Below, piece after piece: positions 18,902 through 40,805 of a DNA stretch of 64,000 nt. The first letter of the stretch is position 1, and each line of letters starts with the position of its first letter. The DNA lies in contig NC_086097.1 in the NCBI RefSeq assembly GCF_963921235.1, positions 139,190,001-139,254,000 on the forward strand, written 5' to 3'. Made by a program: the position numbers and the translations under genes. A model generated the notes under the pieces. The model was not told the origin of the DNA, did no database searches, and was given only the letters and a program-made list of their open reading frames with translations. The stretch comes from Mobula hypostoma. Taxonomy: Eukaryota.

Positions 18902-18969
18902 ATGAATAAAGACGCACAACTCCGAGCAACTATAAATCAGAAGTTGATAGAAACAGGCGAGCGTGAACG
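18902..18969 (+). CDS. ENY2: ENY2 coding exon A (MNKDAQLRATINQKLIETGERER)
   Basis: Acceptor tgctag| at 18892, ATG at 18902, donor CG|GTAAGA. Near identical to vertebrate ENY2/Sus1. Confidence 0.95.
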
Positions 18970-19057
18970 GTAAGAGAATTTCCATTGTGAATGTATTTCA
19001 GATGTTCTAAATAAGTAGAATATCATTTTATTCTAATCTTGTCCTTTTTGCCTCCAG

Positions 19058-19128
19058 TCTGAAGGAGCTGCTCAGAGCAAAACTCACTGAATGTGGATGG
19101 AAAGATCAGTTGAAAGCACACTGTAAAG
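19058..19128 (+). CDS. ENY2: ENY2 coding exon B ([23 protein letters not shown])
   Basis: Acceptor cctccag|, donor G|GTACAC, 71 nt, phase-consistent, after an 88-nt intron. Confidence 0.96.
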
Positions 19129-20026
19129 GTACACATTGATTAGGAAAAGATAAAGGAATATAGGGAAATTGAAGAAAAATGGAAAAGCCAGAGTAAGTGA
19201 GAGTAGCAGGAAACAGGACCATTTCTTGGTAGGGGTCAGCTATTTTAGCGATGAGCAATAATTTCATTATCACAGATGGCTAGCGAGGCTCAGTTGTTGA
19301 GTATATTAAATCTTGAAAATGAAAAATCTTGGATGTTTGAACGAAGGAAAATCAAGAATCATGTGGGACTGCTGCTTAGGAAGATCACCCCTGATATTAC
19401 AATGGTGGTGCTAGATCAAGGGCAGATTGATTAATTCTCTTTTATTTCTTACGTTCTTGAAAGAAAGGGCGTGGGCCAAAATATCAGTGTCTCAACTCTA
19501 TGACCTGCATTTTAAATTGGTTTTAAAGATGATCATTGTTTCTTATAATTTGTATCTGCTAAGCAGAACTTTATTCTTCACTAAGGATACAAACCTAAAG
19601 CTAGCAAATAGGATTTGTGTAGATGGGCTGACATGGATGTAATGGGTTGAAGGGCCTTTTTCCGTGTCCTACAACACTGTGATTCTACAGTTGACAGAGT
19701 TCATGTCAACACTGAGTTAATGCTATCAGTAGAAGAAGGTGGGGAGACATAGACCAAGGAATGAGGACGTCTGGGATCACAATGGGGCACTGTTTCTGAT
19801 TGGCCTGTTCTCAAATGTTCATGGACATAGGTGAACTTAGAGAGCATTCATGTGAAATCCGTTGATATGAAGCTTTTGTAATGATGACACGTATATGTTT
19901 AACAATTTAATGTAGCCTTGTGATACCAGTGGAGACACAGGAAATGGCAAATAATAGGATCTGGAGCAAAACAAAAAGCTGCTCTAGCAATTCAGTGGGT
20001 CAGGCCTTACACACATAGGCAAAAGC

Positions 20027-20978
20027 TTCACACACACAATGCCGGAGGAGCTCAGCAAGCCAGGTAGCATCTATGGAAAAGAGGTAGAGGCAGGTGTAGC
20101 ATTTGTTCCACTTGCAAGGATAAGTGCCAGGAGGGAGATCACTGGGGAGAGACGATTCGTCTCTCCGCAATGATCTCCTTCCTGGCACTTATCCTTGCAA
20201 GCGGAACAAGTGCTACACCTGCCCTAAAACCTCCTCCCTCACTACTATTCAGGGCCCCAAACAGTCCTTCCAAGTGAGGCGACACTTCACTTGTGAGTCT
20301 GTTGGGGTCATATTCTGTGTCTGGTGCACCCATTGTGGTCTCCTGTATATCGGAGAGACCCAATATAGATTGGGAGATCGCTTCGCAGAGCACCTACGCT
20401 CTGTCCGCCAGGAAAAGCGGGATCTCTCCGTGTCCACTCATTTTAATTCCACTTCCCATTCTGATATGTCTATCCATGGCCTCCTCCACTGTCGTGATGG
20501 GGCCATCAGGTTGGAGGAAGAACAACTTTATTTGAACCTTATGGCCTAAACATCGATTTCTCAAACTTCCGATAATGCCCTGTTCCTCTCCTTCACCATC
20601 TCCTTTCCCTCTCTCACCTTATTTCCTTGCCCACTCATAGCCTCCCTCTGATGCTTCTCTCACCCCCTTTCTTCCATGGCCATCTGTCCTATCAGTCTCC
20701 CCCTTCTCCAGCCCTGTAGCTCTTTCACCAATCAGCTTTCTAGTTCTTTACTTCATCCCTCCCCCTTCAGGTTTCACCTATCACCTTGTGTTTCTCTCTC
20801 CCCTCCCACCACCTTTTAAATTTACTCAGCTTTTTTTTCTCTCCTGCTGAAGGGTCTCAGCCCGAAACATCAACTGTACTCTTTTCCGTAGGTGCTACCT
20901 GGCCTGCTGAGTTCCTCCGGCATTTTGTGTGTGTGTGTTGCTTGGATTTCCAGCATCTGCAGATTTTCTCCTGTTTGT
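20027..20978 (+). mobile_element. 5'-truncated Penelope-like retroelement (GIY-YIG endonuclease) with inverted 5' end
   Basis: ORF 20124-20549 PCKRNKCYTC..FTCESVGVIFCVWCTHCGLLYIGETQYRLGDRFAEH is a Cys motif + GIY-YIG. Pyrimidine-rich 3'UTR. 20027-20083 is an inverted copy of 20878-20935. Internal 65-bp-arm hairpin at 20090-20222. Confidence 0.88.
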
Positions 20979-22622
20979 GAAGAGGCAAAAGCTTAGTCAT
21001 TCTTCATTATTTCTGTCAGCTGCATGTGATGCTGCCACCACCAGCCACGTCTTCCCCTCCCCAGACCTTTCTGCTTTGAGCTGGGGGCACTTTCTGTGAT
21101 CCCTGATTTGTTCTTTTCTTTCTGTCCCCTGCAGGTAGTCTAGACAGTAACTTAATCGTATGAACATTGAATCAATCAATTTCTGGTAACCCACACACCC
21201 CTCCATTCCTTTCTATATCCTTTTAATCCACCCAGTTCCTCTCACTCATCCCCTTCTTTCCCCTATCCCAGCTCCCTGGGTTTCCTCCTCCACCTAGTTC
21301 CTCTGTCTACCACGCACACACTTTACCTACACAATACCTCTTTCCCTCCCCGTTTCCCAACTGCTCAACATCCTTCACTTCTCTGGACCCAATCACCACC
21401 TTCTTTTCTTTTCAGATTTCCTAATCTCCAGCCCCTCAAAATCTCCACTATCACATCCCAGCCTTTGTCACTATCTCCAACTCCCCCACCCCATCCACCT
21501 GGCTCCATTTGCACATCAACTCCTCCTCACATGGATACCTAGCTGTCCCCCCCCCCGACAAAACACCTTATACTGGCTGTCTCCCCTTTATACTCTCAAC
21601 TCTAATGGAGGCTCAAAACCCAACATGTTGATTCTCCCTTTGCCTCCACAGATGGTGCCAGAAATGCACTCCAGTAGACTTTGTATGTTTCTGTGATAGC
21701 AATGTTGTGAAGAGTCTATTTTATCACGTATTGAATAAAGCAGTACAACGCACGAAAAGACCCTTCAGTCTGCGCCGTCCATGATGCCAATTTAAACAAA
21801 TCCTATCTGCCTGAACATGAGCTACAGTACAATATATTCCTCCATTCCTTGCCTGTTCACGTGCCTGTCTAAATGCATCTTAATCAGTGGTAATGTATCT
21901 AAATTCTGTAATTAATAGGGAGAGGACTTGTACTGAGAGTAAGATTTAAATTCAAGATCAACCAAAACTTCAAAGCACAAAAGAGACCACTTGGTGGTCT
22001 CAGTGAACACGTGGGCTGTTTGAGCATAATATCCCATCAGAGCAGTTTTCTTCAAGGGAATTTTTGGCAGAGCAGTAGCTCTTCTTGACTGTAGAAAGAT
22101 ATTACCATTATGGGCTGTTTTTCAGATATGCCAGGGTTTTACTAGGTTCAGTTCTAAAAGCAGGTTTGCTGGATCTGTTACTGGAATTTATTACCATATG
22201 CACTTATAATTTTCGTTACAAAATTTGCCATTGTTGGATCCATTTGATGAGCAAAATCAGTGATAAATTGCTGTAATGTAAAACAACAGGGAATATTATA
22301 GAATTTTAGAAACTAAACTAGAACGTACAGTCATAGAGTTATACAACATGGAACTGACCCTTCGGCCTAACTCATCCCTGCCAACCAAGGTGCTAATATA
22401 TTTGTGTTAATCCCATTTACCTGCATTTAGCGCCTATCCCCCTTAAACCTTTCCTGTCATATACAGTTGCTCAGTAATGTGAAGCAATTGTAATCAACCC
22501 ATTGGATTTCAGTAGTGTAAAGTCTGAAGCTTTGAGATGAATGTTGAGAAACTCATTTGCAACCTAATTTTGACAAAAGCTTTCTGTCATGATTTTGAAA
22601 TTGCTTTCCTCATCTGTTGTAG

Positions 22623-22697
22623 ATGTGATCAGGGAAAAAGGACTGGAACACGTGACGGTAGATGATTTGGTGGCAGAAATAACTCCAAAAGGAAGAG
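22623..22697 (+). CDS. ENY2: ENY2 coding exon C ([25 protein letters not shown])
   Basis: Acceptor ttgtag|, donor G|GTCTGT, 75 nt, phase-consistent. Confidence 0.96.
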
Positions 22698-22844
22698 GTC
22701 TGTATGTGTTCATTTATATGGAGCATGTATGGCAAGATTAATCACAAATATAAGCAAATCTACAACATCACTTCCTGATTTAGTCTGTGGATCTGTTTTG
22801 GGATTCATTCTTTGGAATAGTTGTATTTATTTATTTTATTTTGT

Positions 22845-23100
22845 TTAGAGACACAGCATGGAATAGGCCATTTCGGCCCCAAGAGCAACAGCGCCCAGCA
22901 ACACATCTATGTAACACTAGCCTAATCATAGAGCAATTTACAATGACCAATTAACTTACTAACTGATAGGTCTTTGGACTGTGGGAGAAAATCGGAACAC
23001 CCAGAGGATACCCACACATTCACTTCAGAGGATGTTTGAAGTCTGGAATTGTACTCCAACAGCCGAGCTGTAATGGCGTACGCTAGCCACATGGTACTGT
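22845..23100 (-). mobile_element. V-SINE/HE1-like SINE with CR1-like tail
   Basis: gtgggagaaaatcggaacacccagaggatacccac core plus a cacagcatggaataggcc..cggccc CR1-like 3' piece. Confidence 0.65.
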
Positions 23101-24469
23101 ACTGTGACAATGCCTAAAATGCCCTTTTCCTAGAAGGTTATAAAAATGGGGGGGGGGGGGCGGGGGGCAGTGGTGGTAATAATGTTCTCATTGTCATCCC
23201 TCTGCATCAGAGATAAATATGTATTCTTTCTTTAGCTTTGCAAATCTAATTTGAAACAAATTGAGTACATCAGCAATGACAATTAATAGCATCGATATTG
23301 TATATTTTAATGTAGGAACCAAAAGTCCAAATTTCATTCAGAATAAAAATGAATGAGACCTAAATCTCCCTGTGCCAGGTGATGCAAGATAAAGAGGTAG
23401 AGAAGTTTAAGGAGAGAATTGTAAAATGTAGGACTAAGCCAACTAGCAAGCTGGCTATCAATGAAATAAAAATATTTGGATACAAGTTTTGTGTTCTAGA
23501 GCTGTTTGCCTGATAGATAAAGGTGAGTAGGTGAAGCCATTAAGGAGTTTACCCAGATGTATCAAACTTTTCAATGAAAGTCAGGGAGGCAGAATGCCAA
23601 ATTTGCTTTGTGACGCCAATGAGTGATGGGTGAGCTGGATATTAACTCGCAGAGTAAATAGGTCGTTCATCCAATTATAACTTATAGTCAAAGGCAAGTT
23701 TATTGTCATATGCACAGGTGCAATGAGAAACTTACTTTCAGCAGCATCATGGGCACATCGCATCATATGAGCAATATTTGCACAAAAAATATAAATAACA
23801 CAAGTAGAACAGAGTTCCATTTGATAAGACTTTACGCACTGAGCGTGTAAAAACCTTTTACTGTACTATTTTTGACCCCTAGGAAACCTACCCCTCTTTT
23901 AGCTATCCTGATTGTGCCTTTCCTGCCTCAGGATGCTGCAGCATTCTATTCTCTACGGTGGTCTTGTCATAGCTTCAACATAGTTATGCTGTACATAGCC
24001 CCACCCACTGCGCATATTGAGTTGCAAAACATGCCTGTACTCTGGTGACTACTTAAAATGTACTATTTATGAATAATTTTAAGATTTTTAAAAAATTTTC
24101 TCCTTGTATACTACATAATTGCTCCATACATTGAATTGAATCTGTACATTGCTAATCAGCTTGCTGTATCCTATAAATTGATTAATATGCTATATCTGGT
24201 AGAAATCAGCAAAATGTCAATTTAAACAATCTCATGACAATGACCAAAACTATTTACATAAATCAAATCATTAAGATCCTTGGGAATGCTACTGCTCTGC
24301 TTTCTATGAAAGTTATTAATCCACCCCTTGCTTTGAGACTTAGCAACGTTTTTATCCATAGAGGAACAGAGCTTTTAATTTGTCTTGGGTCACTATGTTC
24401 CAATACTAAATGATGAAAATGTATGCTGATCAAGGTTAGGTCAGATTTTTTAAAATTTTTTTTAGAAGA

Positions 24470-25440
24470 AGTTCCTCCTCATCTCTGTTCCAGAGGGGTG
24501 TCTTTCTATTCTGAGGCTATACCATCTGATCCTAGACTCCAACTACAGTACTGAGAATTTTTACTCCATGTCCATTCTATCCAGACCTTTCAATATTCCA
24601 TAGTTTTCAATGCAATACCCTTCATTCTTTTAAACTCCAATGAGTACAGTCTCAGAGCCATCAAATGCTCTTCATTCATTAACCCTTTCATTTCCAGGAT
24701 CATTCTCATAAACCTCTGGACTCTCCAATGCTGACAGAAATCCTTCCTGAGACATGGGGCTCACAACCACCTATAATACTCCAAATATGGTCTGACCAAT
24801 GGCTTATCAACTATAATATTACATCTTTATTATTATATTCTGGTCCTCTAGAAATGAATGCTAACATTGCATTTGCCTTCCTTACTGCCAACTCAGTTTA
24901 TGTTAACCTTTAGCGAATTCTGCACTAGAACTCCCAAGTCCCTTTGCATCTCTGATTTCAGAATTTGTTACCTGTTTAGAAAATATGCTATGCTTTTATT
25001 CCTTCTACCAAAGTGAATGACCATGCATTTGCTGTATTCCATCTGCCACTTCTTTGCTCATCCTCCTAATCTGCCTAAGTCCTTCTGCAGACTCTTTGCT
25101 CCATTGACACTACCTGCCCCTCTCCCTATCTTTGTGTCATCCGCAAACTTGGCCACAAAGCCATCAATTCCTTCAACCAGATAACGTGAAAAGTAGTGGA
25201 ATACCAACTCCTTACTTTCTCTAAAAAGTAGGATGACATTTGCAGCTTTGTAGTCCTCTATAACTATTGCAGAATCTGGTGATTCTCGAAAGATTACTAC
25301 TAATGCCTCTGCAATCTCTTCATCTACGTCTTTCACAACCCTGGGCTATAGTCCTTCCAGTCCAGGTTGCTTATCTACCTTCAGACCTTTCAGCCTCCAA
25401 GTACCTTCTCCTCAGTAATGGCAACTATACTCGTTTCTGC
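24470..25440 (-). mobile_element. Degraded CR1 LINE fragment
   Basis: ORF 25058-25336: EIAEALVVIF..ANVILLF..KFADDTKIG..LQKDLGRL. Confidence 0.8.
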
Positions 25441-26514
25441 CTCCTGACTCCATCCACCAGAACAGCCAGGACCTCCCAATAGCCACCGATTTCAATTACC
25501 ATACTAACATCCCTGTTCATGGCCCTTGAATTTCTGGCTTGTTGCTGCTGTCTTTCACAGTGGTAAGAAGAAGGAGGGTAATTTGAGAAAAGAAGCAGGG
25601 AGCTTACAGTTTTCATTCTGGATCTATTGCATGATTGACATTAACGCAACTCCTTTTCTCTAAATAATGCTGCTCACAATTTTTTGGATGACCCTGCCTG
25701 ATTAGTTGATTTCCATTCCCATCTCAAAGCCAAACATATGAGAGCCCGTGCTCTTGAATTATCTGAATGAATGTTCTGCCACTTACCCCACCCTCACTGC
25801 CCAACTCAAAGACACACTCTCCTGCACTGGTCACTTTTCACCTTTTATTGGTTCACGGCTGTGAACTCACCTTCATGAACTCTAGTTCTGAATGTTACTT
25901 TTTATTTGCACAATTTGTTCTTTTTTGGGGCACATTGGGTATTTGTCGGTCTTTGTAATGGGTCCACGTGGGTTTCTTTGTTTTGTGCTTTTTGTAAGGA
26001 GATGATAGCAAGGTTGTATATACTTTGTACTTTGAACTTTGCTGCTTCACACATCTATACTATTTTTTATAGTGTCAGTAACATTATACTGTCTTACATA
26101 AACATGCGACACATACTTGTCAATCATCAGGCCATGTCATTCAGAGTCTTTGGCTCAGGGTACCTATCCAAGAGTCTCTTAAAAGACCCTATTGCATGGT
26201 AATAAACTTGAATTTGAATTAATGTTACACGGTTAAAGGAACCTAGTCTTAATCCATTGCTGCATTGGTTTTGAATCAAACATTGCAGCCAATTCCATTA
26301 TCACTCTAGAGCCTACAGATGATGGGTGAGATAGTGCACAATAATTCCCTGCTGTCCACATTTATGTTATGACAGTCAAATATAGATATTTCAAAGGTTT
26401 CTACTTCTAAAATTTAAAATAGTTTGATTCCAAGATAAAACCGTGACAACTCGTTCGTTGGTTTGGCTTTTATTTAAAAGATCCCTGTTTCAGACGTGCT
26501 TGTTTTTCTTTCAG

Positions 26515-26591
26515 CCCTGGTGCCAGACAGTGTGAAGAAGGAGCTTTTGCAGAGGATAAGGACCTTCCTTTCTCAGCATGCCAGTCTCTAA
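26515..26591 (+). CDS. ENY2: ENY2 last coding exon ([25 protein letters not shown])
   Basis: Acceptor tttcag|, stop TAA at 26589-26591. The four exons sum to 291 nt = 96 aa + stop. Confidence 0.96.
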
Positions 26592-27559: not shown

Positions 27560-27888
27560 ATCAAATAGAGTATTGAGAACAGGTGTTGGGATGTTATGTT
27601 GAAGTTCTACAGTAAATGATGGTGAGGCAAAATTTGGAGTATTGTGTGCTGTTCTGGCCATCTACCTACAGAAAAGATATTAATAAGAGTGAAAAAAATA
27701 CAGAGAACATTTACAATGATGTCATTGGGACTTGAGGACTTCAGTTATAGGGATAGATTAATAGGTTAGGTCTTTATTCTCTGGAGTGTAGGAGAATGAG
27801 GGGAGATTTGATAGAGGTATACAAAATTATGAGGAGTATAGATAGGATATATGCAAGCAGGCTTTTTCCATTAAGGTTGGGTGTGACT
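27560..27888 (+). mobile_element. Host CR1 fragment, left half (split by the ERV)
   Basis: CR1 ORF2 C-terminal sequence ending in gggtgtGACT; it resumes at 39412 with GACTagaaa..aaggtgaaatat..gggggaacttc. Confidence 0.8.
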
Positions 27889-28297
27889 TGTTGGATGCTG
27901 ATATTTTTGATCCAAGGTTCTTTTGGAAGTCAAGAATGAGGCATAAAACTTGTTGCTTCACAATAGTTCATTAAGCGCTAAAAAAACAAAGATCGGGAAG
28001 AAAAGGTAGTGAGAATCTAAGAACAAAGAAGAAAGGGGGAAAAAAAAGATGGCGAGCCAACACGCTCTGCTCTTCTGAAAACCAGAGATAACAGGCATTC
28101 CATTCAGATTTGTAGATAAGAGTTAACCAATAAGATAGACCCTATTCAAATATTGCGATACTGAAGAAGTTTCCAGAAAGACACAAAACTGTAACCACTA
28201 GGGGATGCACTAAACAATTGCATATACACAGGTGATAGACACAAGGAAACATAGGAAAGGTAAACTGGAAAGAAAGCAATTATAGAGTCTAATCCAA
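27889..28297 (-). repeat. ERV 3' LTR
   Basis: Aligns with 39102-39411 (ggttcttttggaagtcaa, ctctgctcttct, tgtaacca, caattatagag.ctaatccaa). It is preceded on minus by the purine tract GGGGAAAGAA (28298-28307). Confidence 0.85.
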
Positions 28298-28409
28298 TTC
28301 TTTCCCCAGTACCACCCCCCCCCCCACCCCTGATTCTAAATCACACATTTAGAATTTGAACACTCAGAGGCAAATAAACTTGTGGTATCTACGGAAAGTT
28401 TATAATAAT

Positions 28410-28545
28410 CAGTCCTGATGAAGGGTCCCGGCCTGAAACATCAGCTATACTCTTTTCCATAGATGCCACCTGGCCTGCTGTGTTCCTCCAGCATCTTATG
28501 TGTGTTACTTGGATTTCCAGCATTTGTGGATTTTCACTTGTTTGT
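28410..28545 (+). mobile_element. Penelope-like 3' terminal fragment with hammerhead-like core, inserted in the ERV
   Basis: CAGTC-CTGATGA-AGGGTCCCGGCCT-GAAAC-ATC followed by the family's gatgccacctggcctgctg..ttccagcat tail. Confidence 0.8.
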
Positions 28546-28599
28546 AATCAAAAACTACATCACTTATGGAAATATTGAAGTGTATTCATAGGGTTATGT

Positions 28600-30365
28600 C
28601 GTTCGGTTGATTAGTAAGCACACTCGCATGAGTTTGAACTACGCTATTAATGATCACCCTTTACAAGTAAAAAAGATGTAAATTATGATAAAGCATATCA
28701 AGACAAATAATATGACTTGCAATAATGAGTAACCCCAGTTTCCTAGTTTAAATGAATCTAGCCAAAGAAATCCCTTCCACCAGATTGATGTATTTTAGCT
28801 GCTTCTTTACAAATATGGTCAGCCAAATCAGTTATGGCTTCAGACTCGTCAGTTATGTAAGTACAACACTCCTTGCACATGTTCCTCTCCCCCATAACTT
28901 CTAAGAGAAGATCTAATGCCATACAATTTTAAAGAACCATCTTGCGCATGGTGACTATTTCTGTTGCTACTTCTGAAGTTATCAGAAGTCATTCGTTCCC
29001 CTTTCTATAGCCACAACAACATTTTTAACCTCTCTTATACTCCTTGCAATACCATAAAATGCAAACTAACTTCTTCTGAAATGTCTTGTTTATTTCTAGA
29101 CTTAGGAGGTAAACATGAAGTCTGTATATATCTCAAAGTAGGAAAGACATACCCCAAATAATAAGATCCTAACTAATTATGTGGTAGAGAGGAATCAACC
29201 CCATTTCCACACATAAAGAATGTATTATTTCATGAATTTATACCATTTGTTATCACTTGACAGAAGCCTTGTTGAATTGAAATATTTTTCTGATGGATAT
29301 TGTCAATGAATATTCCAGAGTCATTACCTCATTTAGTACAATGTAAAGTATAATTGCATGAACTATGTCCTACTGGAATGGTACCTACTGAACTCAAGCA
29401 AAAGGTAACTTTTATAGCGAATACCTGAATAGCTTTATTGCAAACAGTAGAGTGAGATATGATATGATTCCCTAAATCATGCTGATTATATTTACATAAA
29501 TGATCGTTCAAGACAGTATATAGGGGGCATAATCATCGTATAATTGTGACTCCCTTGAGAATAATTAATCTTGAGCTTAATACTAATATTGCCATTACTG
29601 GGTTATGATAATGAACTTTGCTTAAGAAAGAAGGTGTATGTTCTGGATCTGTAGGAATGCTTAGCATTGGTGATTTAATTTTTTTTTCATTTAGGGGATA
29701 TGGGTATTGCCAGATAAGCCAGCATTTATTGCCCATAACTGCTGCAGTCCCTGAGGTGTAGGCAATATGTTTCCAAGTCAGGATGGTGAGTGACTTGGAA
29801 GGGGATTTCAAAGTGGTGGTGTTCCCAAGTATCTGCTGTTCTCATCCTTCTAGATGGTAATGGTCGTGGGTCTGGAAGGTGCTAGCTTAGGAACTTTTGT
29901 GTGTTGTTGCAGTGCATCTTGTAGATAGTAGATGCTGCTGCAACTGTTTGTCGTTGGTGGGATTGGATGCTTGTGGAAGAGATATCAATCAAGTATGTTG
30001 CCTTGGACTGGATGGTGTCAAGCTTCTTGAGTCTTGATGGAACTGCACTCATCCAGGTGCGTGGTGAGTATTCAATTGCACTCCTGACCTGAACCTTGTA
30101 GATGGTGAACAGGCTTTGGGGAGTCAGGAGGTAAGTAACATGCTGCAGGATTCCTAGCCTTTGACCTGCTCTGGTAGCCAAAGTGTTTATATGACTAGAA
30201 GTGTGTGGTATATATTGACATACCCAACAGCTAGAGGCATTAACAGCATCAGCAAATTCATATGATATTTTGTAAGTATACATTATGAGTGATCTCAATT
30301 GGCACATTGTGAATGGGAGGAATTGGCAAAAATATAACAACAAATAATATTGGAATAAACTTCAT
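28600..30365 (-). pseudogene. ERV env remnant, gamma-type
   Basis: Signal-like MKFIPILFVVIFLP (ATG 30365); SU CWVC motif; FFMCGNG..LPHN*LGSYYLG; decayed furin site RNKQ (29086-29097); ISD-like L*NCMALDLLL; C..CC motif (MCKECC); TM helix YSLLQVILFVLICFIIIYIFF. Confidence 0.85.
29680..30195 (-). mobile_element. L2/CR1-group LINE 3' fragment inserted in env
   Basis: ORF 29882-30343 switches from env (CWVCQYIPHTSS) to LINE RT C-terminus (RAGQRLGIL..LFTIYKVQVRSAIEYSP..LDTIQ). Confidence 0.75.
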
Positions 30366-30529
30366 AATGTCCTGTAGTTGTGGATTCTGTTTGAGGTCTT
30401 CTGGCTGGTTAGTGATTTGCTCACTGTATAGACACTGAGTTGAAGGTTACTGGCACATTAACCACAGGTTAATTATCCTTATTGGATACAACTTTAGCTC
30501 GCTTGTAGTGGCTGTTATGTATTCACTTA

Positions 30530-32745
30530 TTTTTACCTTATACTTTCACCACTGAGTTAGTCATTAACAGCACTTGATAAGAACCTTCCCATCAGCCTTC
30601 CATTGGTTACTTATGCAGTTTCTTACTCGGGATCCAGGGTGTGTCCTCCTCCTCTTGGATCACTCCAAGTGATGGAAACCTGTTGAGAAGCAGACTGGAC
30701 ATCTAGGGTTAATTTCACACAACAGTTGATAAACTGTCTGCGTACTGTGTATATCAGCCTCCCTGAGATCAAGAACTCCCGGCAGTGTCATAGAATGCCC
30801 TGTTACTTTATTGAATGGACTTAATTTAGTTTTCCTGTTGGGGTTGCTCTGATGCTATATAAGACCATAGGAAGAGTCATAGGCCATGGTACACCTTCTT
30901 CATGGTAATTAGTCATTGTTTGATGGTTCCATTCATTTGTTCAACTTGTCCTCATGATTCTAGATGATGTGGACAATGAAAAGACCATTCAATGTTCATC
31001 ATTCAACATAATTCCTGACAAACATTCCCAGTGTAATGTGTTCTTTGATCAGAGCTGATGTGACATAGCAATCCCCATCCAGGAATAGAGTCCTTGATCA
31101 GAGTTTTTGCTGTGTGTAACTTTCTGGAACAGCTTTCACCTATCTTGAAAACTTGTCAACTTGTCCACTATTACCAGTGCATCAGAGTATCTTTGACACT
31201 TAGGAAAAGTAACGTAGTCCATTTCTAAGTATATAAGTGGACCAGGTTGGACAAGAACAGTTAATTGTGGTAGCATTTCCACTTCTCCAGGATTTGTTTT
31301 CTGGCATGTCATGCATCTTTCAAACATTTATCGAGCTCGTGCTCTGCATTTTGGATTCCACCACCATTGGGAGAACCTGTTGATAATCTTTTCCTCTCCA
31401 ATGTGTCCCTAGGCAGTGTATTGTACCTGCTGTGCCAGATAAGGAAGCAATGTAGTTGGAGCTACTAGACTATGATAGTGCCACATCTCCGTGCTCCATC
31501 ACAGTTGAACCTTCCACCATTTTCCATCCAGAACGAAATTTCTTGTTTGGAGAATTGAGCTTGCTCTCTCAAATATCTTGTAACTTAGCTTCCATAATTT
31601 CAGTTGTCAAATTTACTGCATATGTTTTCAGTACTTCATTTAATTATTTGAACTTTTTAAAATTTCTTTTATTTCTTTTACCCCTTCCCGTGCTGTCCTT
31701 TTGGCAATCTCATCCACAAATGCATTTCCATAACTTTTCATTGAAATCATTTTGGAGTGGCTTTTTCATTTTAATACAGCTATTCCTGAAGACAATTCTA
31801 TGACATTCATGTGCTCTTATACTAGTTGACCATTCTTGATTGGGCATCCAGCCGTTCAAGTTCCCTCCCAATCATTGAGGAGCCATCGGTGTACAAAATC
31901 AGATCTTTGGCAAAGTAATAACCAACAAAAACAATGTTGGTCTCCATGTTATTGAGTTAAAACTGCCATCATCTGTCTCTCATTGACATACAGGGTAAAT
32001 GGTTTGCCTGTATCAGGGATTCATAATGCAGGTGCAGTACTCAATATCACCTTTAAAGTTTGAAATGCATCTTGAAAGTTGTTCTTTATTACGATCATAG
32101 GGTGGTCTGAGCACTTACTGCCTTTCAGCAGATCGTTGAATGGTTGGGCAATTTCAGCATATGAATTGATCCATGCTCTGCCGTATTTACACAAACCCAA
32201 AAATGATCAGAGTTGCTGGACTGTTACAGGTGGTGTTGCTGTCTTATTGGCTTTTGCATGACCCTCAGTGATTTCCTGCTTATCTTGGGAAATTTTCTGC
32301 CCCATGTAAATTACTTCTCCTTGCCTAGATTTGCTTTATGATCCTTGTAGGGTAGATAATTGAGCAAATAAATCGCATGTTCACGCCGGTCTGCAACTTC
32401 GGATACAATCAGGACATCGTCCACATATTGTACGATAGTCGAATCAATGGCTGATAAGTCCCTCAGATATTGTCTCAAAGCCATGTGATAGACAGTGGGA
32501 TTGTTGTGGAGCCCTTGTGGTAGCCTCATCCACTGGTATTGTTGACCATCAACTGTGAAAGCTAACCACGGTTGATATTCAGACGCTAGCTGTACAGTCT
32601 AGAATCCATTGGCCATGTCAATAACTGTAAACAACTTGTGTGATGGCTTCATGACATTAAAAATAGTTGATGGATCTGCCACTCGCAGGGCTAGCTTGTC
32701 AATATATTGATTAACAACCCAGTAATTCACTGTCAGTCTCCTTTC
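30530..32745 (-). pseudogene. ERV pol remnant (RT, RNase H, integrase)
   Basis: RLTVNY..FTVIDMANGF*..LAFTVDGQQYQWMRLPQGLHNNP..QYVDD (32311-32740); FLGLCKYGRAWINSYAEIAQP; LYTDGSS (~31890); integrase H..CMTCQKTNP..MDYV..LVIVDK, ISSDQ, EGSYQVLL. Many stops and frameshifts. Confidence 0.88.
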
Positions 32746-32979
32746 ATTGGTTTCATCTTCAATCCTGCGTGTCTTCACTTCCTTGGTCTTTATTGGAGCA
32801 ACCTATTGCTTCATCACTGTCATCCTCATTTGAGTCACTAGAGGCCAGTGCAGAGTGCCTGTGATATCTCTGCTGTAATTCATAGAAACATAGAAACATA
32901 GAAAATAGGTGCAGGAGTAGGCCATTCGGCCCTTCGAGCCTGCACCGCCATTTATTATGATCATGGCTGATCATCCAAC

Positions 32980-35968
32980 TCAGAACCCAGCCTTCCCTCC
33001 ATACCCCGTGACCCCTGTAGCCACAAGGGCCATATCTAACTTCCTTTTAAACATAGCTAATGAACTGGCCTCAACAGTTTGCTGTGGCAGAGAATTCCAC
33101 AGATTCACCACTCTCTGTGTGAAGAAGTTTTTCCTAACCTCGGTCCTAAAAGGCTTCCCCTCTATCCTCAAACTGTGACCCCTCGTTCTAGACCTCCCCA
33201 ACATCGGGAACAATCTTCCCGCATCTAGCCTGTCCAATCCCTTTAGGATCTTATACGTTTCAATCAGATCCCCCCTCAATCTTCTAAATTCCAACGAGTA
33301 CAAGCCCAGTTCATCCAGTCTTTCTTCATATGAAAGACCTGCCATCCCAGGAATCAATCTGGTGAACCTTCTTTGTACTCCCTCTATGGCAAGGATGTCT
33401 TTCCTCAGATTAGGGGACCAAAACTGCACACAATACTCCAGGTGTGGTCTCACCAAGGCCTTGTACAACTGCAGTAGTACCTCCCTGCTCCTGTACTCGA
33501 ATCCTCTCGCTATAAATGCCAGCATACCGTTCGCCTTTTTCACCGCCTGCTGTACCTGCATGCCCACTTTCAATGACTGGTGTATAATGACACCCAGGTC
33601 TCGTTGCACCTCCCCTTTTCCTAATCGGCCACCATTCAGATAATAATCTGTTTTCCTATTTTTGCCACCAAAGTGGATAACTTCACATTTATCCACATTA
33701 AATTGCATCTGCCATGAGTTTGCCCACTCACCCAACCTATCCAAGTCACCCTGCATCCTCCTCACTGCTAACACTGCCACCCAGCTTCGTGTCATCCGCA
33801 AACTTGGAGATGCTGCATTTAATTCCCTCATCCAAGTCATTAATATATATTGTAAACAACTGGGGTCCCAGCACTGAGCCTTGCGGTACCCCACTAGTCA
33901 CCGCCTGCCATTCTGAAAAGGTCCCGTTTATTCCCACTCTTTGCTTCCTGTCTGCTAACCAATTCTCCACCCACACCAATACCTTACCCCCAATACCATG
34001 TGCTTTAAGTTTGCACACTAATCTCCTGTGTGGGACCTTGTCAAAAGCCTTTTGAAAATCCAAATATACCACATCCACTGGTTCTCCCCTATCCACTCTA
34101 CTAGTTACATCCTCAAAAAATTCTATGAGATTCGTCAGACATGATTTTCCTTTCACAAATCCATGCTGACTTTGTCCGATCATTTCACCGCTTTCCAAAT
34201 GTGCTGTTATCACATCCTTGATAACTGACTCCAGCAGTTTCCCCACCACCGACGTTAGGCTAACCGGCCTATAATTCCCCGGTTTCTCTCTCCCTCCTTT
34301 TTTAAAAAGTGGGGTTACATTAGCCACCCTCCAATCCTCAGGAACTAGTCCAGAATCTAACGAGTTTTGAAAAATTATCACTAATGCATCCACTATTTCT
34401 TGGGCCACTTCCTTAAGCACTCTGGGATGCAGACCATCTGGCCCTGGGGATTTATCTGCCTTCAATCCCTTCAATTTACCTAACACCACTTCCCTACTAA
34501 CATGTATTTCGCTCAGTTCCTCCATCTCACTGGACCCTCTGTCCCTTACTATTTCTGGAAGATTATTTATGTCCTCCTTAGTGAAGACAGAACCAAAGTA
34601 ATTATTCAATTGGTCTGCCATGTCCTTGCTCCCCATAATCAATTCACCTGTTTCTGTTTGCAGGGGACCTACATTTGTCTTTATCAGTCTTTTCCTTTTT
34701 ACATATCTATAAAAGCTTTTACAGTCCGTTTTTATGTTCTCTGCCAGTTTTCTCTCATAATCTTTTTTCCCCTTCCTAATTAAGCCCTTTGTCCTCCTCT
34801 GCTGAACTCTGAATTTCTCCCAGTCCTCAGGTGAGCCACTTTCTCTGGCTAATTTGTATGCTACTTCTTTGGAATTGATACTATCCCTAATTTCTCTTGT
34901 CAGCCACGGGTGCACTACCTTCCTTGATTTATTCTTTTGCCAAACTGGGATGAACAATTGTTGTAGTTCATCCATGCAACCTTTAAATGCCTGCCATTGC
35001 ATATCCACCGTCAATCCTTGAAGTGTCATTTGCCAGTCTATCTTAGCTAATTCATGTCTCATACCTTCAAAGTTACCCCTCTTTAAGTTCAGAACCTTTG
35101 TTTCTGAATTAACTACGTCACTCTCCATGTTAATGAAGAATTCCACCATATTATGGTCACTCTTACCCAAGGGGCCTCTCACGACAAGATCGCTAATTAA
35201 CCCTTCCTCATTGCTCAAAACCCAGTCCAGAATAGCCTGCTCTCTAGTCGGTTCCTCGACATGTTGGTTCAAAAAACCATCCCGCATACATTCCAAGAAA
35301 TCCTCTTCCTCAGCACCTTTACCAATTTGGTTCACCCAGTCTACATGTAGATTGAAGTCACCCATTATAACTGCTGTTCCTTTATTGCACACATTTCTAA
35401 TTTCCTGTTTAATACCATCTCCGACCTCACTACTACTGTTAGGTGGCCTGTACACAACTCCCAGCAGCGTCTTCTGCCCCTTAGTGTTACGCAGCTCTAC
35501 CCATATCGATTCCACATCTTCCCGGCTTATGTCCTTCCTTTCTATTGCGTTAATCTCTTTTTTAACCAGCAACGCCACCCCACCTCCCCTTCCTTCGTGT
35601 CTATCCCTCCTGAATATTGAATATCCCTGAACGTTGAGCTCCCATCCCTGGTCACCCTGGAGCCATGTCTCTGTGATCCCAACTATATCATAATCATTAA
35701 TAACAATCTGCACTTTCAATTCATCCACCTTATTACGAATGCTCCTTGCATTGACACATAAAGCCTTCAGGCGCTCTTTTACAACTCTCTTAGCCCTTTT
35801 TAATGCTTGCCCTGGATTTGTCGGCCTGCCACTTTTACTTTTCCCCTTTGTACTTTTTGCTTCTACGCTCACTTTACACTCCTCTGTCTCTCTGCACTGG
35901 TTCCCATCCCTCTGTTGTGAACTAACCTCCTCACACCTAGCCGCTTTAATTTGATTCCCACCCCCCAA
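32980..35968 (-). pseudogene. CR1 ORF2p (APE endonuclease + RT) with a single frameshift near 33755
   Basis: NARSI, GITETW, GDFN, SDHN (EN); [29 protein letters not shown] (RT). ORF 33746-35968 continues in another frame as 32980-33894. Confidence 0.93.
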
Positions 35969-35973
35969 CCATT

Positions 35974-36891
35974 CTAGTTTAAAGTCACCTCAGTAGCCCC
36001 CGCTAATCTCCCTGCCAGGATATTGGTCCCCCTAGGATTTAAGTGTAACCCGTCCTTTTTGTACAGGTCACACCTACGCCAAAAGAGGTCCCAATGATCC
36101 AAAAACTTGAATCCCTGCCCCCTGCTCCAATCCCTCAGCCACGCATTTATCCTCCACCTCATCGCATTCCTACTCTCACTGTCGCGTGGCACAGGCAGTA
36201 ATCCCGAGATTACTACCTTTGCGGTCCTTTTTCTCAACTCCCTTCCTAGCTCCCTATATTCTTCTTTCAGGACCTCATCCCTTTTCCTACCTATGTCATT
36301 GGTACCTATATGTACCAGGACCTCTGGCTCTTCACCCTCCCACTTCAGGATATCTTGGACACGATCAGAAATATCCCGGACCCTGGCACCAGGGAGGCAA
36401 ACTACCATCCGAGTCTCTGGACTGCGTCCACAGAATCGCCTATCTGACCCCCTTACTATCGAGTCCCCTATCACAACTGCCCTCCTCTTCCTTGCCCTAC
36501 CCTTCTGAGCTACAGGGCCAGACTCTGTGCCGGAGGCAGGGCCACTGTCGCTTCCCCCGGGTAAGCTGTCCCCCCCAACAGTACTCAAACAGGAGTACCT
36601 GTTGTTAAGGGGCACAGCCGCCGGGGTACTCCTCATCACCTGCCTTTTCCCCTTCCCTCTCCTAACCGTGACCCACTTGTCTGCCTCCCGTGGCCCCGGC
36701 GTGACCACCTGCCTTCCACTCCTCTCTATCACCTCCTCGCTCTCCCTGACCAGACGAAGGTCATCGAGCTGCAGCTCCAGTTCCGTAACGCGGTCCCTTA
36801 GGAGCTGCATCTCGATGCACTTGGCGCAGATGTAGACGTCCGGGAGGCTTGGAGACTCCAGGGCCTCCCACATCCGACACCGAGAACAGCA
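35974..36891 (-). CDS. CR1 ORF1p: zinc finger/coiled coil + SGNH esterase domain (N-terminus truncated)
   Basis: CCSRC..CAKC, leucine heptads, SGNH blocks [15 protein letters not shown] and DGLHLN. Confidence 0.9.
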
Positions 36892-37799
36892 ACTTGGTGT
36901 TCAGATGGTGTTGATGCCTCGGACTATTGTCCAAGGTAGGTTGCAATTCCTCACAGTTCAGATGGTGGCGTTATCTCAATGGACTGACCAATGTCAGGGT
37001 TTTTCCCCAAGAAGTGTCCACTGGCAGGACCGTCCCCCTGATGACCCTCCTGAGCTTTCTCATATTGCTTCAGTTCGTCAAAGTTCTGCGCAAAGCACTT
37101 CAATTCAATTACACTCATTATGTTGTTTTTTCACTCCTTCAATAAATGTAGAAATTTGCTCTTTAGGCATTTTACTGTCTAATATACTGCTTTTGTAGTT
37201 ATCACAAATTTCCTGTTTCTTTCCCTATTGTTTAATTAACTTCCTGACTTTGCTTTGCTAACTTTTTCACTTGATCACACATTCAATCAAACTGACCAGA
37301 TGTTCTTATCTGTAACTCACATATTCCAGCTTTTCCCTTTCCCTCAAACATTCTCTGGATCCTTTCACATACCTTCCTAATAAACTTAACATTGATTACT
37401 TATCCAGGTTTTTTCATTAATCTTATTAAACTGAGATATTTATATTCAGGTAGGAGCTTTGGCCAATGTCTTAATTCAGTCGTATGTAACACTTAATTTG
37501 TATGCACTTTTTATCACTTTGACTGCAATCCAAAATATTTTCGGATTGCAAACAAAATATTGCCACTAGAGTGCAACTGAAGTATAAATAGATTGTAACC
37601 CAAACATCGCGAGATTGCAAATGAAACTTCATTAGGTTGTTACAGATCTGTTTTTTTTTCCAGAATAGCAACATATAGTTTCCTCACTCTTAAACCCACC
37701 AGTTGTTGTATTGAAGCAGATCTAGGTGGGTTATCTTGGATGATTTGGAATTATAGAGGAGACTCTTACCTCCTTTTGTATGTGCACTAATGTTTCCAC

Positions 37800-39053
37800 T
37801 TTCAGCAGTTAGTACCATCATTCCTACAATCCTGATTGAGAAGTTGCAGATCCTGGGCCTCTAAACCTCCCTCTGCAATTGGATCCTTGACTTCCTAACC
37901 GTAAAACCACAGTCTGTGCGGATAGGTGATAACATATCCTCTTCGCTGACGATCAACACTGGTGCACCTCAGGGGTGTGTGCTGAGCCCACTGCTCTACT
38001 CTCTATATACCCATGGCTGTGTGGCTAGGCATAGCTCAAATACCATCTATAAATTTTCTGACAATACAGCCCTTGTTGGTAGAATCTCAGGTGGTGATGA
38101 GAGGGTGTACAGGAATGAGATATGCCAACTAGTGGAGTAGTGCCACAGTAACAACCTGGCACTCAACGTCAGTAAGACGACAGAGCTGATTGTGGACTTC
38201 AGGAAGGGTAAGACAAAGGAGCACATACCAATCCTCACAGAGGGATCAGAAGTGGGGAGAGTGAGCAGCTTCAAGTTCCTGGGTGTCAAGATCTCTGACC
38301 ATCTAACTTGGTCCCAACATATCGATGTAGTTATCAAGAAGGCAAGACAGCGGCTATACTTTATCAGGAGTTTGAAGAGTCAAGTCAAGTGAAGTTTATT
38401 GTCATTTCGACTATAAGCTGCTGCTACAGTACACAGTAAAAATGAAACAATGTTCCTCCAGGACCGTGGTCCAGATTTGGCATGTCAACAAATACTCTCA
38501 AAAACTTCTATAGATGTACTGTGGAGAGCATTCTGACAGGCTGCATCACTGTGTGGTATGGGGGGGCTACTGCACAGGACCGAAAGAAGCTGCAGAAGGT
38601 TGTAAATCTAGTCAGCTCCATCTTGGGTACTAGCCTACAAAGTACCCAGGACATCTTCAGGGGGCGGTGTCTCAGAAAGGCAGCATCCATTATTAAGGAC
38701 CTCCAGCACCCAGGGCATGCCCTTTTCTCACTGTTACCATCAGGTAGGAGGTACAGAAGCCTGAAGGCACACACTCAGCAATTCAGGAACAGCTTCTTCC
38801 CCTCTGCCATCCGATTCCTAAATGGACATTGAATCTTTGGACACTACCTCACTTTTAATATACAATATTTCTGTTTTTTCAAATCTATTCAATAGACGTA
38901 ATTGATTTACTTGTTTATTTATCATTATTATTTTTATTCATTTATGATTATTATTACTTTTTCTCTGCTAGATTATGTATTGCATTGAACTGCTGCTGCT
39001 AAGTTAACAAATTTCACGTCACATGCCGGTGATAATAAACCTGATTCTGATTC
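37800..39053 (+). mobile_element. Rex1-like LINE 3' portion inserted in the ERV leader/gag region
   Basis: [41 protein letters not shown]; tail aataaacctgattctgattct; short inverted LINE-tail insert at ~38380-38472. Confidence 0.85.
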
Positions 39054-39079
39054 TTCAGAGTCCTTAAATTTTTGCAACC

Positions 39080-39098
39080 ATCCTTGCTGACTATGCCA
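39080..39098 (-). promoter_or_regulatory. Primer-binding site complementary to tRNA-Ser 3' end
   Basis: Minus strand TGGCATAGTCAGCAAGGAT, 3 nt after the LTR, versus the expected TGGCGTAGTCGGCAGGAT for vertebrate tRNA-Ser(AGA) (recalled). Differences are two CpG transitions and a 1-nt insertion. Confidence 0.8.
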
Positions 39099-39101
39099 AA
39101 T

Positions 39102-39411
39102 TGTCGGATTCTGATGTTTTTGAACCTAGGTTCTTTTGGAAGTCAAAAAAGAGGCATGAAACTTGTTCTTTCATGATCATTTCATTAAGTGTTAAGAGAA
39201 TAAGGAGGAGATCAGAAAGGAAGAGTAATGAGAGTCTAAAAACAAAGAAGAAAGGAAAGATAGCGATCCAACATGCTCTGCTCTTCTTATACCTGTAACC
39301 ATTAGGAGACACACTGAACAGTTGCATCTACATTGGTAATTATGTGGATATAAGTAGGCATGGGAAAGTTAAAGTGCAAAGAAAATAACAATTATAGAGA
39401 CTAATCCAACA
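39102..39411 (-). repeat. ERV 5' LTR
   Basis: TG..CA ends; a diverged copy of 27889-28297 with ~100 bp missing; adjacent to the PBS. Confidence 0.85.
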
Positions 39412-39690
39412 GACTAGAAATGGTGATCATAAGTAAAGGGTAAAAGGTGAAATATCTAGGAAGAACATGAGGGGGAACTTCATTCGGGGCAGTGCGAGTA
39501 TGGAACGAGCTGCCAGCAGATGTAGTGTATGTGTACTTGATTGCGACATTTCGGAGAAGTTTAGGGAATGAATGGGAAGGGTATGGAGGACTATAGTGCA
39601 GGTGAGGGACAATGGGACTGGGGAGAAAAACAGTTTGACACAAAATAAATGGGCTGAGTGGTCTTTCTGTGCTGTAGTGCTCTATGACTT
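39412..39690 (+). mobile_element. Host CR1 fragment, right half
   Basis: Continues the CR1 broken at 27888 and ends in a gtgctgtagtgctctatgact tail. Confidence 0.8.
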
Positions 39691-40604
39691 TACAATGAGG
39701 CAAAGTGGAGAAAGTGCAGTGCAGATAGACAAATGAAACGCAAGGACCATGGTGATGTAGACTGGAAGATCAAGAGTTCATTGTTTAGCATTCAAGAGTC
39801 TGATAACAATGGGACAGAAGATGTCCTTGAGCCTGTGGTATGTGCCTTCAAGCTTTTGTGCCTTCTACCTGGTGAGGGAGTGGAGAGCAGAAAGTGACCA
39901 TGGTGGACAGAGTCCTTGATTATGTTGGCTGCTTTCCTGAGGCAGCAGGAAGCATAGATTTTATAGAGGAGAGGATGTTTTGCTGAGTTTCAGAGGCTTG
40001 GTGACCTTCTGGGTTTTAGGAAGTTCAGGGGATATGGGATTAGTGCAGGAGGTAAAAAATCAGCCAAGGTCTGAATGAATGTTGGAGTAGGCACATTGGC
40101 CCAGAGATCTGGCTGCGCCTTTATTTCTTGTGAATGTTACTACTGAAATACTAACCCATCTGACCTACATTGCAAAGCTGTTAACCTTTTAATATCTTAG
40201 CAAAATTGTTTGGCAGAATCTTACAGAGATCAGGGCAAACTTTTCCGTATAATCGACATTTAAGAATTGTTTTAGAATGGAAAATTCTCTAGTCTTTTTT
40301 ATTCATTTTGATAAATCATTTTGTAGGTTCAAGAGATCTTCAGAGAATCCATGAACAATTCCCTCCTGGGTTCTATGGAGTGCAATAAGATCTTTCACGG
40401 CAATTTTGTAATGGTTATATTTGAAAGCTGCTAGTCCCTAGGGATATTTTTAATATTCTCCAAAAAATTAATTCACATATTTTAAATTATATACTAGTTC
40501 TGTATCCTATAAGATACTGCCTGAAAAGAAACTGGGAGGACATTTTATATGTGAATAATAAATTGCTGCAAAGCTTTGAGTAGGAGATATTAATAGTGTT
40601 TGAA

Positions 40605-40805
40605 CAACACACATCAAAGTTGCTGGTGAACGCAGCAGGCCAGGCAGCATCTCTAGGAAGAGGTACAGTCGATGTTTCGGGCCGAGAACCCGAAACGTTG
40701 ACTGTACCTTTTCCTAGAGATGCTGCCTGGCCTGCTGCGTTCACCAGCAACTTCGATGTGTGTTGCTCGAATTTCCAGCATCTGCAGAATTCCTCGTGTT
40801 TGCGT
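40605..40805. repeat. Near-perfect 160-bp palindrome of Penelope-like terminal sequence
   Basis: Arms 40605-40681 and 40689-40765 are reverse complements around a 7-nt loop; same family as 8669-9766. Confidence 0.9.

Follow-up and report, generated by a model that had tools for sequence, protein, structure and literature searches.

The window analysed is a 64,000-nucleotide stretch of the Mobula hypostoma genome (NCBI RefSeq assembly GCF_963921235.1, contig NC_086097.1, forward-strand positions 139,190,001 to 139,254,000). On its minus strand, from 39411 down to 27889, lies a real and long-dead retroviral provirus, an endogenous retrovirus (ERV) with two long terminal repeats (LTRs), remnants of gag, pol and env, and four later insertions (Table 1). 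The element lacks protease, most of gag and the N-terminal part of reverse transcriptase (RT). This gag-protease-RT deletion is an inherited trait of a subfamily and not decay of the window copy.

Structure and coding remnants of the provirus

The two LTRs align locally with a score of 277, against a maximum of 52.5 in 300 shuffles. Over 296 gap-free columns the pair differs by 38 transitions and 16 transversions (p 0.182; Kimura two-parameter distance, K2P, 0.215, with a bootstrap range of 0.16–0.29, and 0.186 once CpG-type columns are removed). These values agree with the divergence of about 20% given, by eye, in an earlier reading of the sequence (the original prediction). The outer ends are TG..CA, with an 8-bp terminal inverted repeat. 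The 3′ LTR is 409 or 411 bp long, its inner-end TG having decayed away, and the 5′ LTR is about 100 bp shorter owing to internal gaps. The tetranucleotide GACT flanks both ends as a target site duplication (TSD). More than 200 contigs per deep run diverge from the window at 27888 and continue as sequence resembling that from 39416 onward; thus the CR1 halves on either side join, and the insertion split an older CR1.

The primer binding site (PBS) differs from the 3′ end of host tRNA-Ser(AGA) genes by two CpG-type transitions and one extra base. The tRNA pattern has nine exact matches in the genome, and all four of those tested were called tRNA-Ser; the site is also conserved in sibling copies. 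The element displays the features of a retroviral provirus: paired TG..CA LTRs with a 4-bp TSD, found also at sibling LTRs, a tRNA PBS with a polypurine tract, and the gene order gag-pro-RT-RNase H-integrase-env, of which protease is present only in long siblings. The RT is retroviral and not of Ty3/gypsy type, as the chromodomain gypsy rows fall outside it in the tree. The end motifs, the GACT duplication within an older CR1, the tRNA-Ser PBS 3 nt inside the 5′ LTR, the purine tract beside the 3′ LTR and the four nested inserts had all been called in the original prediction, and all are present.

The minus-strand succession of RT, RNase H and integrase followed by env, also proposed there, is supported by a Pfam search of the window for RT (RVT_1, E 1e-17) and for the integrase zinc finger, which exceeds the cut-off, whereas RNase H and rve fall below it. 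Compared with P0001, an intact Pol of the fish lineage, the window pol begins at residue 171 and omits residues ∼466–583.

The env remnant contains a surface subunit (SU) with a CWVC motif, a decayed furin site at ∼29095 and a transmembrane subunit (TM) with an immunosuppressive domain (ISD) and a cysteine loop at ∼28800–28970. An ISD followed by CX6CC in TM is the mark of a gamma-type Env. In the window it is decayed, with a shortened loop; sibling copies, L054 among them, display both motifs in full. The L054 env stretch passes the TLV_coat cut-off (26.9 bits vs 22.5), the only one of three siblings tested to do so; another Pfam search, with env frames from three siblings, stayed below the cut-off throughout. 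The window env frames gave no match in the Pfam search and only weak ones in PDB (syncytin-1, ERV-S71, the TM of avian sarcoma and leukosis virus and filovirus GP2, E 0.16–1.5), with a ferritin ahead of them at 0.13. A genome search with the window SU frame scored none of 464 candidates, and a scan of IMG/VR with an intact relative found no match. The proposal of an old env-bearing provirus is supported.

Table 1. Features of the provirus and its later insertions (window coordinates)
Feature	Position	Strand	Evidence or remark
Older CR1 fragment, left half (insertion target)	27567..27884	+	blastn to the young CR1 of the window, E 2e-6; contigs run past 27888
4-bp TSD GACT, left copy	27885..27888	+	Sequence; sibling LTRs also 4-bp-flanked, exact in L017
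3′ LTR (inner TG decayed)	27889..28299	-	LTR alignment
Polypurine tract	28300..28330	-	Sequence; similar tracts precede sibling 3′ LTRs
Later short repeat insert, presumably SINE/LINE-tail-like (short/long interspersed element)	28410..28545	+	Very high repeat depth; similar copy at 40689-40802
Decayed gamma-type env, interrupted by 29680-30195	28560..30360	-	Frames; sibling ISD/CX6CC; TLV_coat in L054
Later LINE fragment in env	29680..30195	-	Sequence and repeat depth
Integrase interrupted by stops and frameshifts (zinc finger, core, C-terminal part)	30490..31500	-	Pfam search; comparison with intact Pol
RNase H remnant	31700..31905	-	∼200 bp lost near 31845 here, retained in siblings such as L078
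Shared deletion 2 junction	31905..31906	-	∼320-350 bp of RT connection region gone, in frame
RT, mid-fingers through YVDD palm and thumb	31906..32741	-	RVT_1 E 1e-17; 62% to intact fish-lineage Pol
Shared deletion 1 junction at GGAGA microhomology	32737..32742	-	Loss of ∼2 kb or more from gag, protease and the N-terminus of RT
gag, last retained part	32742..32880	-	Matches deleted and long siblings
Young CR1 LINE in gag	32881..36891	-	Esterase-like ORF1 (open reading frame 1) of 308 aa; ORF2 split between frames of 747 and 305 aa
Heavily decayed leader and 5′ gag	36892..37799	-	Sibling comparison; no Pfam match
Later LINE fragment in leader, presumably L2-like	37800..39053	+	Sequence
PBS for tRNA-Ser(AGA), 3 nt (ATT spacer) from LTR	39080..39098	-	Match to host tRNA-Ser(AGA) genes
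5′ LTR	39102..39411	-	LTR alignment
TSD GACT, right copy	39412..39415	+	Sequence; one contig bridges the junction in organisms A, B and D
Older CR1 fragment, right half	39416..39540	+	Contigs across the insertion site

Shared deletions and probable copying in trans

The original prediction had placed a loss of protease and much of gag near 32750. The deletion itself stands; its reading as a lesion of this copy does not, for the breakpoint is found in at least 35 other loci. Searches were made with junction-bearing queries and only the best 40 candidates were scored, so that all counts are lower bounds; a few of the loci duplicate one another. In its window form, junction 1 (gag to RT) is spanned by 35 of the 39 scored non-self matches (187 candidates). 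Among loci selected by RT it lies at the same place in 13 of 17, two of these being a tandem duplicate pair, and it occurs in two forms that differ by an extra 31-nt gap. Normal pol continues at the site in 4 of the 17 and in all three loci selected by protease. A second shared deletion, in at least 39 loci, had been overlooked in the single-deletion outline. Its junction is spanned by all 39 scored non-self matches (124 candidates), and in 18 aligned loci it is exact in five and compatible in two; the window and these same seven loci have a 6-nt gap in common. A third shared deletion excises the RT active site (10 loci printed, 20 fetched). It co-occurs with either form of junction 1, each of the four combinations having been seen, and the same holds for junction 2, which accompanies both forms. 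Such mosaic combinations suggest recombination between defective genomes. One locus, L103 (G000:C59:38839500-38849499), holds two deleted-form copies in tandem around one LTR.

Lesions private to the window copy do exist, such as the gap in RNase H and the shortening of the 5′ LTR, and would suit the integration of a full provirus from which ordinary genomic deletion removed protease and gag afterwards. The recurrence of the same breakpoints at dozens of loci that are not linked, in printed alignments that show no artefact, makes such a history extremely improbable.

Longer copies that retain protease are of the same age as the window copy and resemble it in LTR and leader; among long copies, L124, L126 and L131 have LTR, PBS or gag in common with the window. 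In the long copies GGAGA stands at both ends of the segment removed by deletion 1, which measures 2036 bp in the shortest case. Splicing of viral RNA followed by reverse transcription would also yield precise, recurrent, in-frame joins. The segments missing through deletions 1 and 2 lack GT..AG ends in most long copies examined, however, and deletion 1 has a direct repeat; an origin of the short forms from spliced RNAs has next to no credibility. As a separate observation, many of the weak lower matches obtained with the protease-RT query fall within frames of 600–1170 aa that contain no stop (e.g. C12:46964683, C45:46172366, C1:239630340); they belong to different LTR elements of this genome, far younger, whose pol is open.

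The GGAGA flanks of deletion 1 are also what would be expected if an identical template jump on an intact genome had produced every deleted copy independently, with no onward copying, and no clade is resolved for the deleted copies. This course is improbable. Deletion 2 has little or no microhomology, yet it falls on one base in at least 39 loci, and deletions 1, 2 and 3 and the 31-nt and 6-nt gaps are stacked in single copies, which requires several rounds of copying.

A first look at the 3.48-Gb genome gave 2600 matches to the LTR, 427 to the RT stretch and 451 to env, which are candidates and not copy numbers; the best 40 of each set are ∼68–84% identical. LTR pairs of seven other two-LTR copies differ by K2P 0.17–0.29, and the TSDs of such copies are mostly unreadable. 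An integrase tree of 21 rows, with 26 of 46 loci omitted for short matches, is a star whose end branches measure 0.12–0.19 in long and deleted copies alike. Pairwise differences between copies (0.19–0.25) are flat across codon positions in RT, integrase and env, and by this codon-position test there is no signal of selection on env or pol. The star tree and the flat codon positions together imply that nearly all divergence arose after insertion and that the copies come from one burst. Certain duplicate pairs (L084/L085; two equal-score loci on C91) are such as would be left by multiplication of a single deleted provirus as DNA, via segmental duplication or LINE machinery. That route is very unlikely for the subfamily: a TSD of its own and two full LTRs accompany the window copy, the sequences flanking the printed copies on the 5′ and 3′ sides are not alike, and divergence between copies about equals that between the LTRs of one copy.

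No genome lacking protease, the greater part of gag and the N-terminus of RT is able to copy itself. Identical breakpoints recur at dozens of unlinked loci whose LTRs, PBS and purine tract are intact, and contemporary relatives, whose former competence is putative, carry the missing genes; complementation in trans best explains this pattern. With a probability of roughly 0.85, the window copy was defective at integration and was copied by proteins of co-existing full-length relatives. Complementation in trans is one of three amplification routes named in the available text of PMC10435555. In the events proposed, RT would have jumped between the short GGAGA repeats to give deletion 1, and helper Gag-Pol of these now extinct elements, likely supplied by the long copies, would have packaged and integrated the short genomes. 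Co-packaged genomes would have recombined, all within a single germ-line burst, after which would have come neutral decay and, later, four LINE/SINE insertions.

Judged by eye, the window and five siblings have an almost complete env, and about fifteen others, long copies among them, have internal cuts in the gene. As many long and deleted copies lack parts of env, this gene was likely a passenger, and intracellular complementation may be weakly favoured over reinfection; a star-like burst yields flat codon positions with or without a working env, so the codon test does not distinguish the two.

Several points weigh against copying in trans. In the star tree the deleted copies do not emerge as a clade, which leaves the breakpoints to carry common descent. 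The long copies are putative helpers, none of them demonstrably competent in gag, pol and env together, and in the four whose gag was searched against Pfam there was no match over the cut-off. Junction-bearing queries also bias the proportions towards deleted copies.

Lineage, age and genomic surroundings

The nearest proteins to the window RT are Logan rows and ERVs of carp, characiform, clupeid and gar (51–66%). In quick trees the window RT falls in a clade with the gar, carp, characiform and clupeid proteins (support 98, or 97 without the window row). This lineage lies outside a 99-supported clade of walleye epidermal hyperplasia virus 1 (WEHV-1) and mammalian gamma-like rows, but as its sister (SH-like approximate likelihood ratio test, SH-aLRT, 96). 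Other lineages with the NGFW motif form a grade outside, in trees that included no row of snakehead retrovirus (SnRV). The RT may be placed between SnRV-like and class I groups, and such a placement would bear on how those clades are drawn. The best match of the RT to a solved structure is murine leukaemia virus (444 bits vs 210 for foamy virus). A first assignment to class I epsilon-like pol, made from this score, was dropped as the RT falls outside the epsilon and gamma clade, and a foamy-like ERV was rejected since Pol is not closest to spumaviruses. Lokiretroviruses have an Env related to Mononegavirales fusion proteins; the env here is of TLV_coat type, and this assignment was also discarded.

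The six ray rows group together (support 99) and are nested within a set of carp-like and clupeid viruses (84), and an approximately unbiased (AU) test rejects uniting the 13 non-ray rows (p 0.033). The tree is a quick one, with nine loci omitted for short frames and several rows without a known host. Frequent host switching of fish retroviruses is reported in the available text of Xu et al. (2018; PMC6001957), to which the ray nesting adds a case and not a principle.

The insertion is orthologous in two other species. One contig of organism B bridges the junction of 5′ LTR and CR1 with 1 difference in 251 positions. In organism D, represented by two runs of one sample, the bridging contig shows 21 differences and 3 gaps over ∼244, an internal piece differs at 114 of 1266 positions and the flank at 40 of 514. 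Since paralogues differ by 19–25%, the D sequences are orthologues. Run X1 may come from the source of the window itself. Short near-identical pieces from organism C (run X9, low depth, small share) were not used, and three small runs of organism A contained none of the sequence words, which does not count as absence.

The LTR pair (16–18%) is about twice as diverged as A vs D (8–9%), so with even rates and no LTR conversion the insertion would be about twice as old as the A–D split. Per-generation rates and generation times in the accessible part of PMC9826928 give 0.83–1.07e-9 per year for three sharks and 1.6–1.8e-10 for three others; the yearly figures are our own division, and the rates are borrowed from sharks, none coming from a ray. 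The faster rates give 87–130 million years (My), or 75–173 My with the bootstrap range. Slow rates (1.6–2.2e-10 per year; PMC9826928; Han, 2015) give 420–670 My and were set aside as implausible, being about equal to or older than the split of cartilaginous and bony fish (∼450 My by the portion of PMC10787021 available). The insertion is probably ∼90–130 My old. The dependence of this age on shark rates that lie about sevenfold apart, with the D split undated, counts against this part of the interpretation.

A broader scenario is offered tentatively, as one that we doubt somewhat more than we credit. A retrovirus of Cretaceous or older date may have passed between rays and ray-finned fish, leaving behind a swarm of defective genomes that recombined and depended on a helper; the window element would then be among the oldest two-LTR proviruses datable by orthology, at least level with an ERV-L of 104–110 My. 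The nesting of the ray rows and the AU test speak for it.

Of the later insertions, the young CR1 has an open ORF1 and an ORF2 whose frame is split near 33760-33890. A short unrelated tail of AGTCA repeats at 38380-38475, inside the LINE fragment of the leader, makes a third level of nesting. Two inverted copies of the 28410-28545 repeat lie at 40599-40771, with 83-bp arms that are 93% complementary and 7 bp apart, and would form a strong hairpin if transcribed. Four coding exons at ∼18940-26570 on the plus strand, assigned to ENY2 by motif, end some 1.3 kb short of the 3′ LTR, so that gene and LTR lie tail to tail. A search of the genome for the EnY2 family gave no match, and its controls gave none either.

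Comparison with known retroviruses

The closest known relatives are the gar, carp and cod ERVs of Xu et al. (2018; PMC6001957), which have the RT motifs IDMANGF, QYQW.RLPQG and YVDD in common with the window element and are 51–62% identical to it. The gar row matches Le_oc_ERV2. By the tip order of S2 Fig of that study, Le_oc_ERV2, Cy_ca_ERV4 and Ga_mo_ERV4 stand in the block labelled Huo (SnRV-related), after snakehead retrovirus, whereas the lineage is sister to epsilon plus gamma in the tree obtained here. Unlike the fish lineage as described in the available text, the present family has a cartilaginous host, and all copies seen are dead, ancient and mostly internally deleted. P0214, a relative in the same RT lineage with the motifs of Cy_ca_ERV4, stands for 3937 member sequences, which makes the lineage abundant, and probably recent, in some fish.

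Elephant shark CmiERV lineage I, an SnRV-related group (Han, 2015; PMC4422223), has the same layout of LTR end, ATT spacer and tRNA-Ser PBS, NGFW in RT and, by eye, env motifs of the same type. The NGFW motif and the ATT/tRNA-Ser PBS are supporting and not defining marks of Huo/SnRV-related membership. The CmiERV LTR, compared without direct alignment, is about twice as long and not visibly alike; its pair is 3.3% diverged, against 21% here, and the accessible portion of the paper reports no shared-deletion subfamily. The combination of ISD and CX6CC in env also marks the gamma-type-Env ERVs of anamniotes (Chen et al., 2021; 10.1101/2021.11.23.469661), which in the part of that study available occur on epsilon-, gamma- or SnRV-related pol and in six cartilaginous fish, with more than 500 copies in three of them.

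The original prediction had held that the family may be undescribed. The viral lineage is known, through the gar, carp, cod and characiform ERVs of the available parts of PMC6001957. In the literature searched, outside which lie Dfam, Repbase and most subscription journals, no description was found of the family, nor of any ERV subfamily with shared deletions in cartilaginous fish, and the family itself may be uncatalogued. The analysis of the element found no new mechanism and no sign of host function.

Great age, dating by orthology and nested later insertions are traits in common with a placental ERV-L provirus of 104–110 My (Lee et al., 2013; PMC3758187), whose minimum age, in the text accessible, comes from dated host splits and not, as here, from borrowed rates. 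In cartilaginous fish, whose genomes evolve slowly, retroviral fossils stay readable far longer than in mammals. A single burst has left hundreds of pol and env loci and thousands of LTR candidates, which offer presence/absence markers and a neutral clock across rays.

The primer of HERV-H is tRNA-His. The RTVLH2-like group of that family (Gemmell et al., 2019; PMC6629862) resembles the present subfamily in being numerous, with shared pol deletions and frequent loss of env, and according to the available text a smaller, more intact group exists beside it, as the long copies do here. HERV-H differs in being an unrelated class I primate family that is far younger, and in the ray element protease and most of gag are also gone. 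Spread that depends on a helper, with deletions stacking up and genomes recombining, is best known in primates and rodents and would have been at work long before in a retrovirus of the fish lineage.

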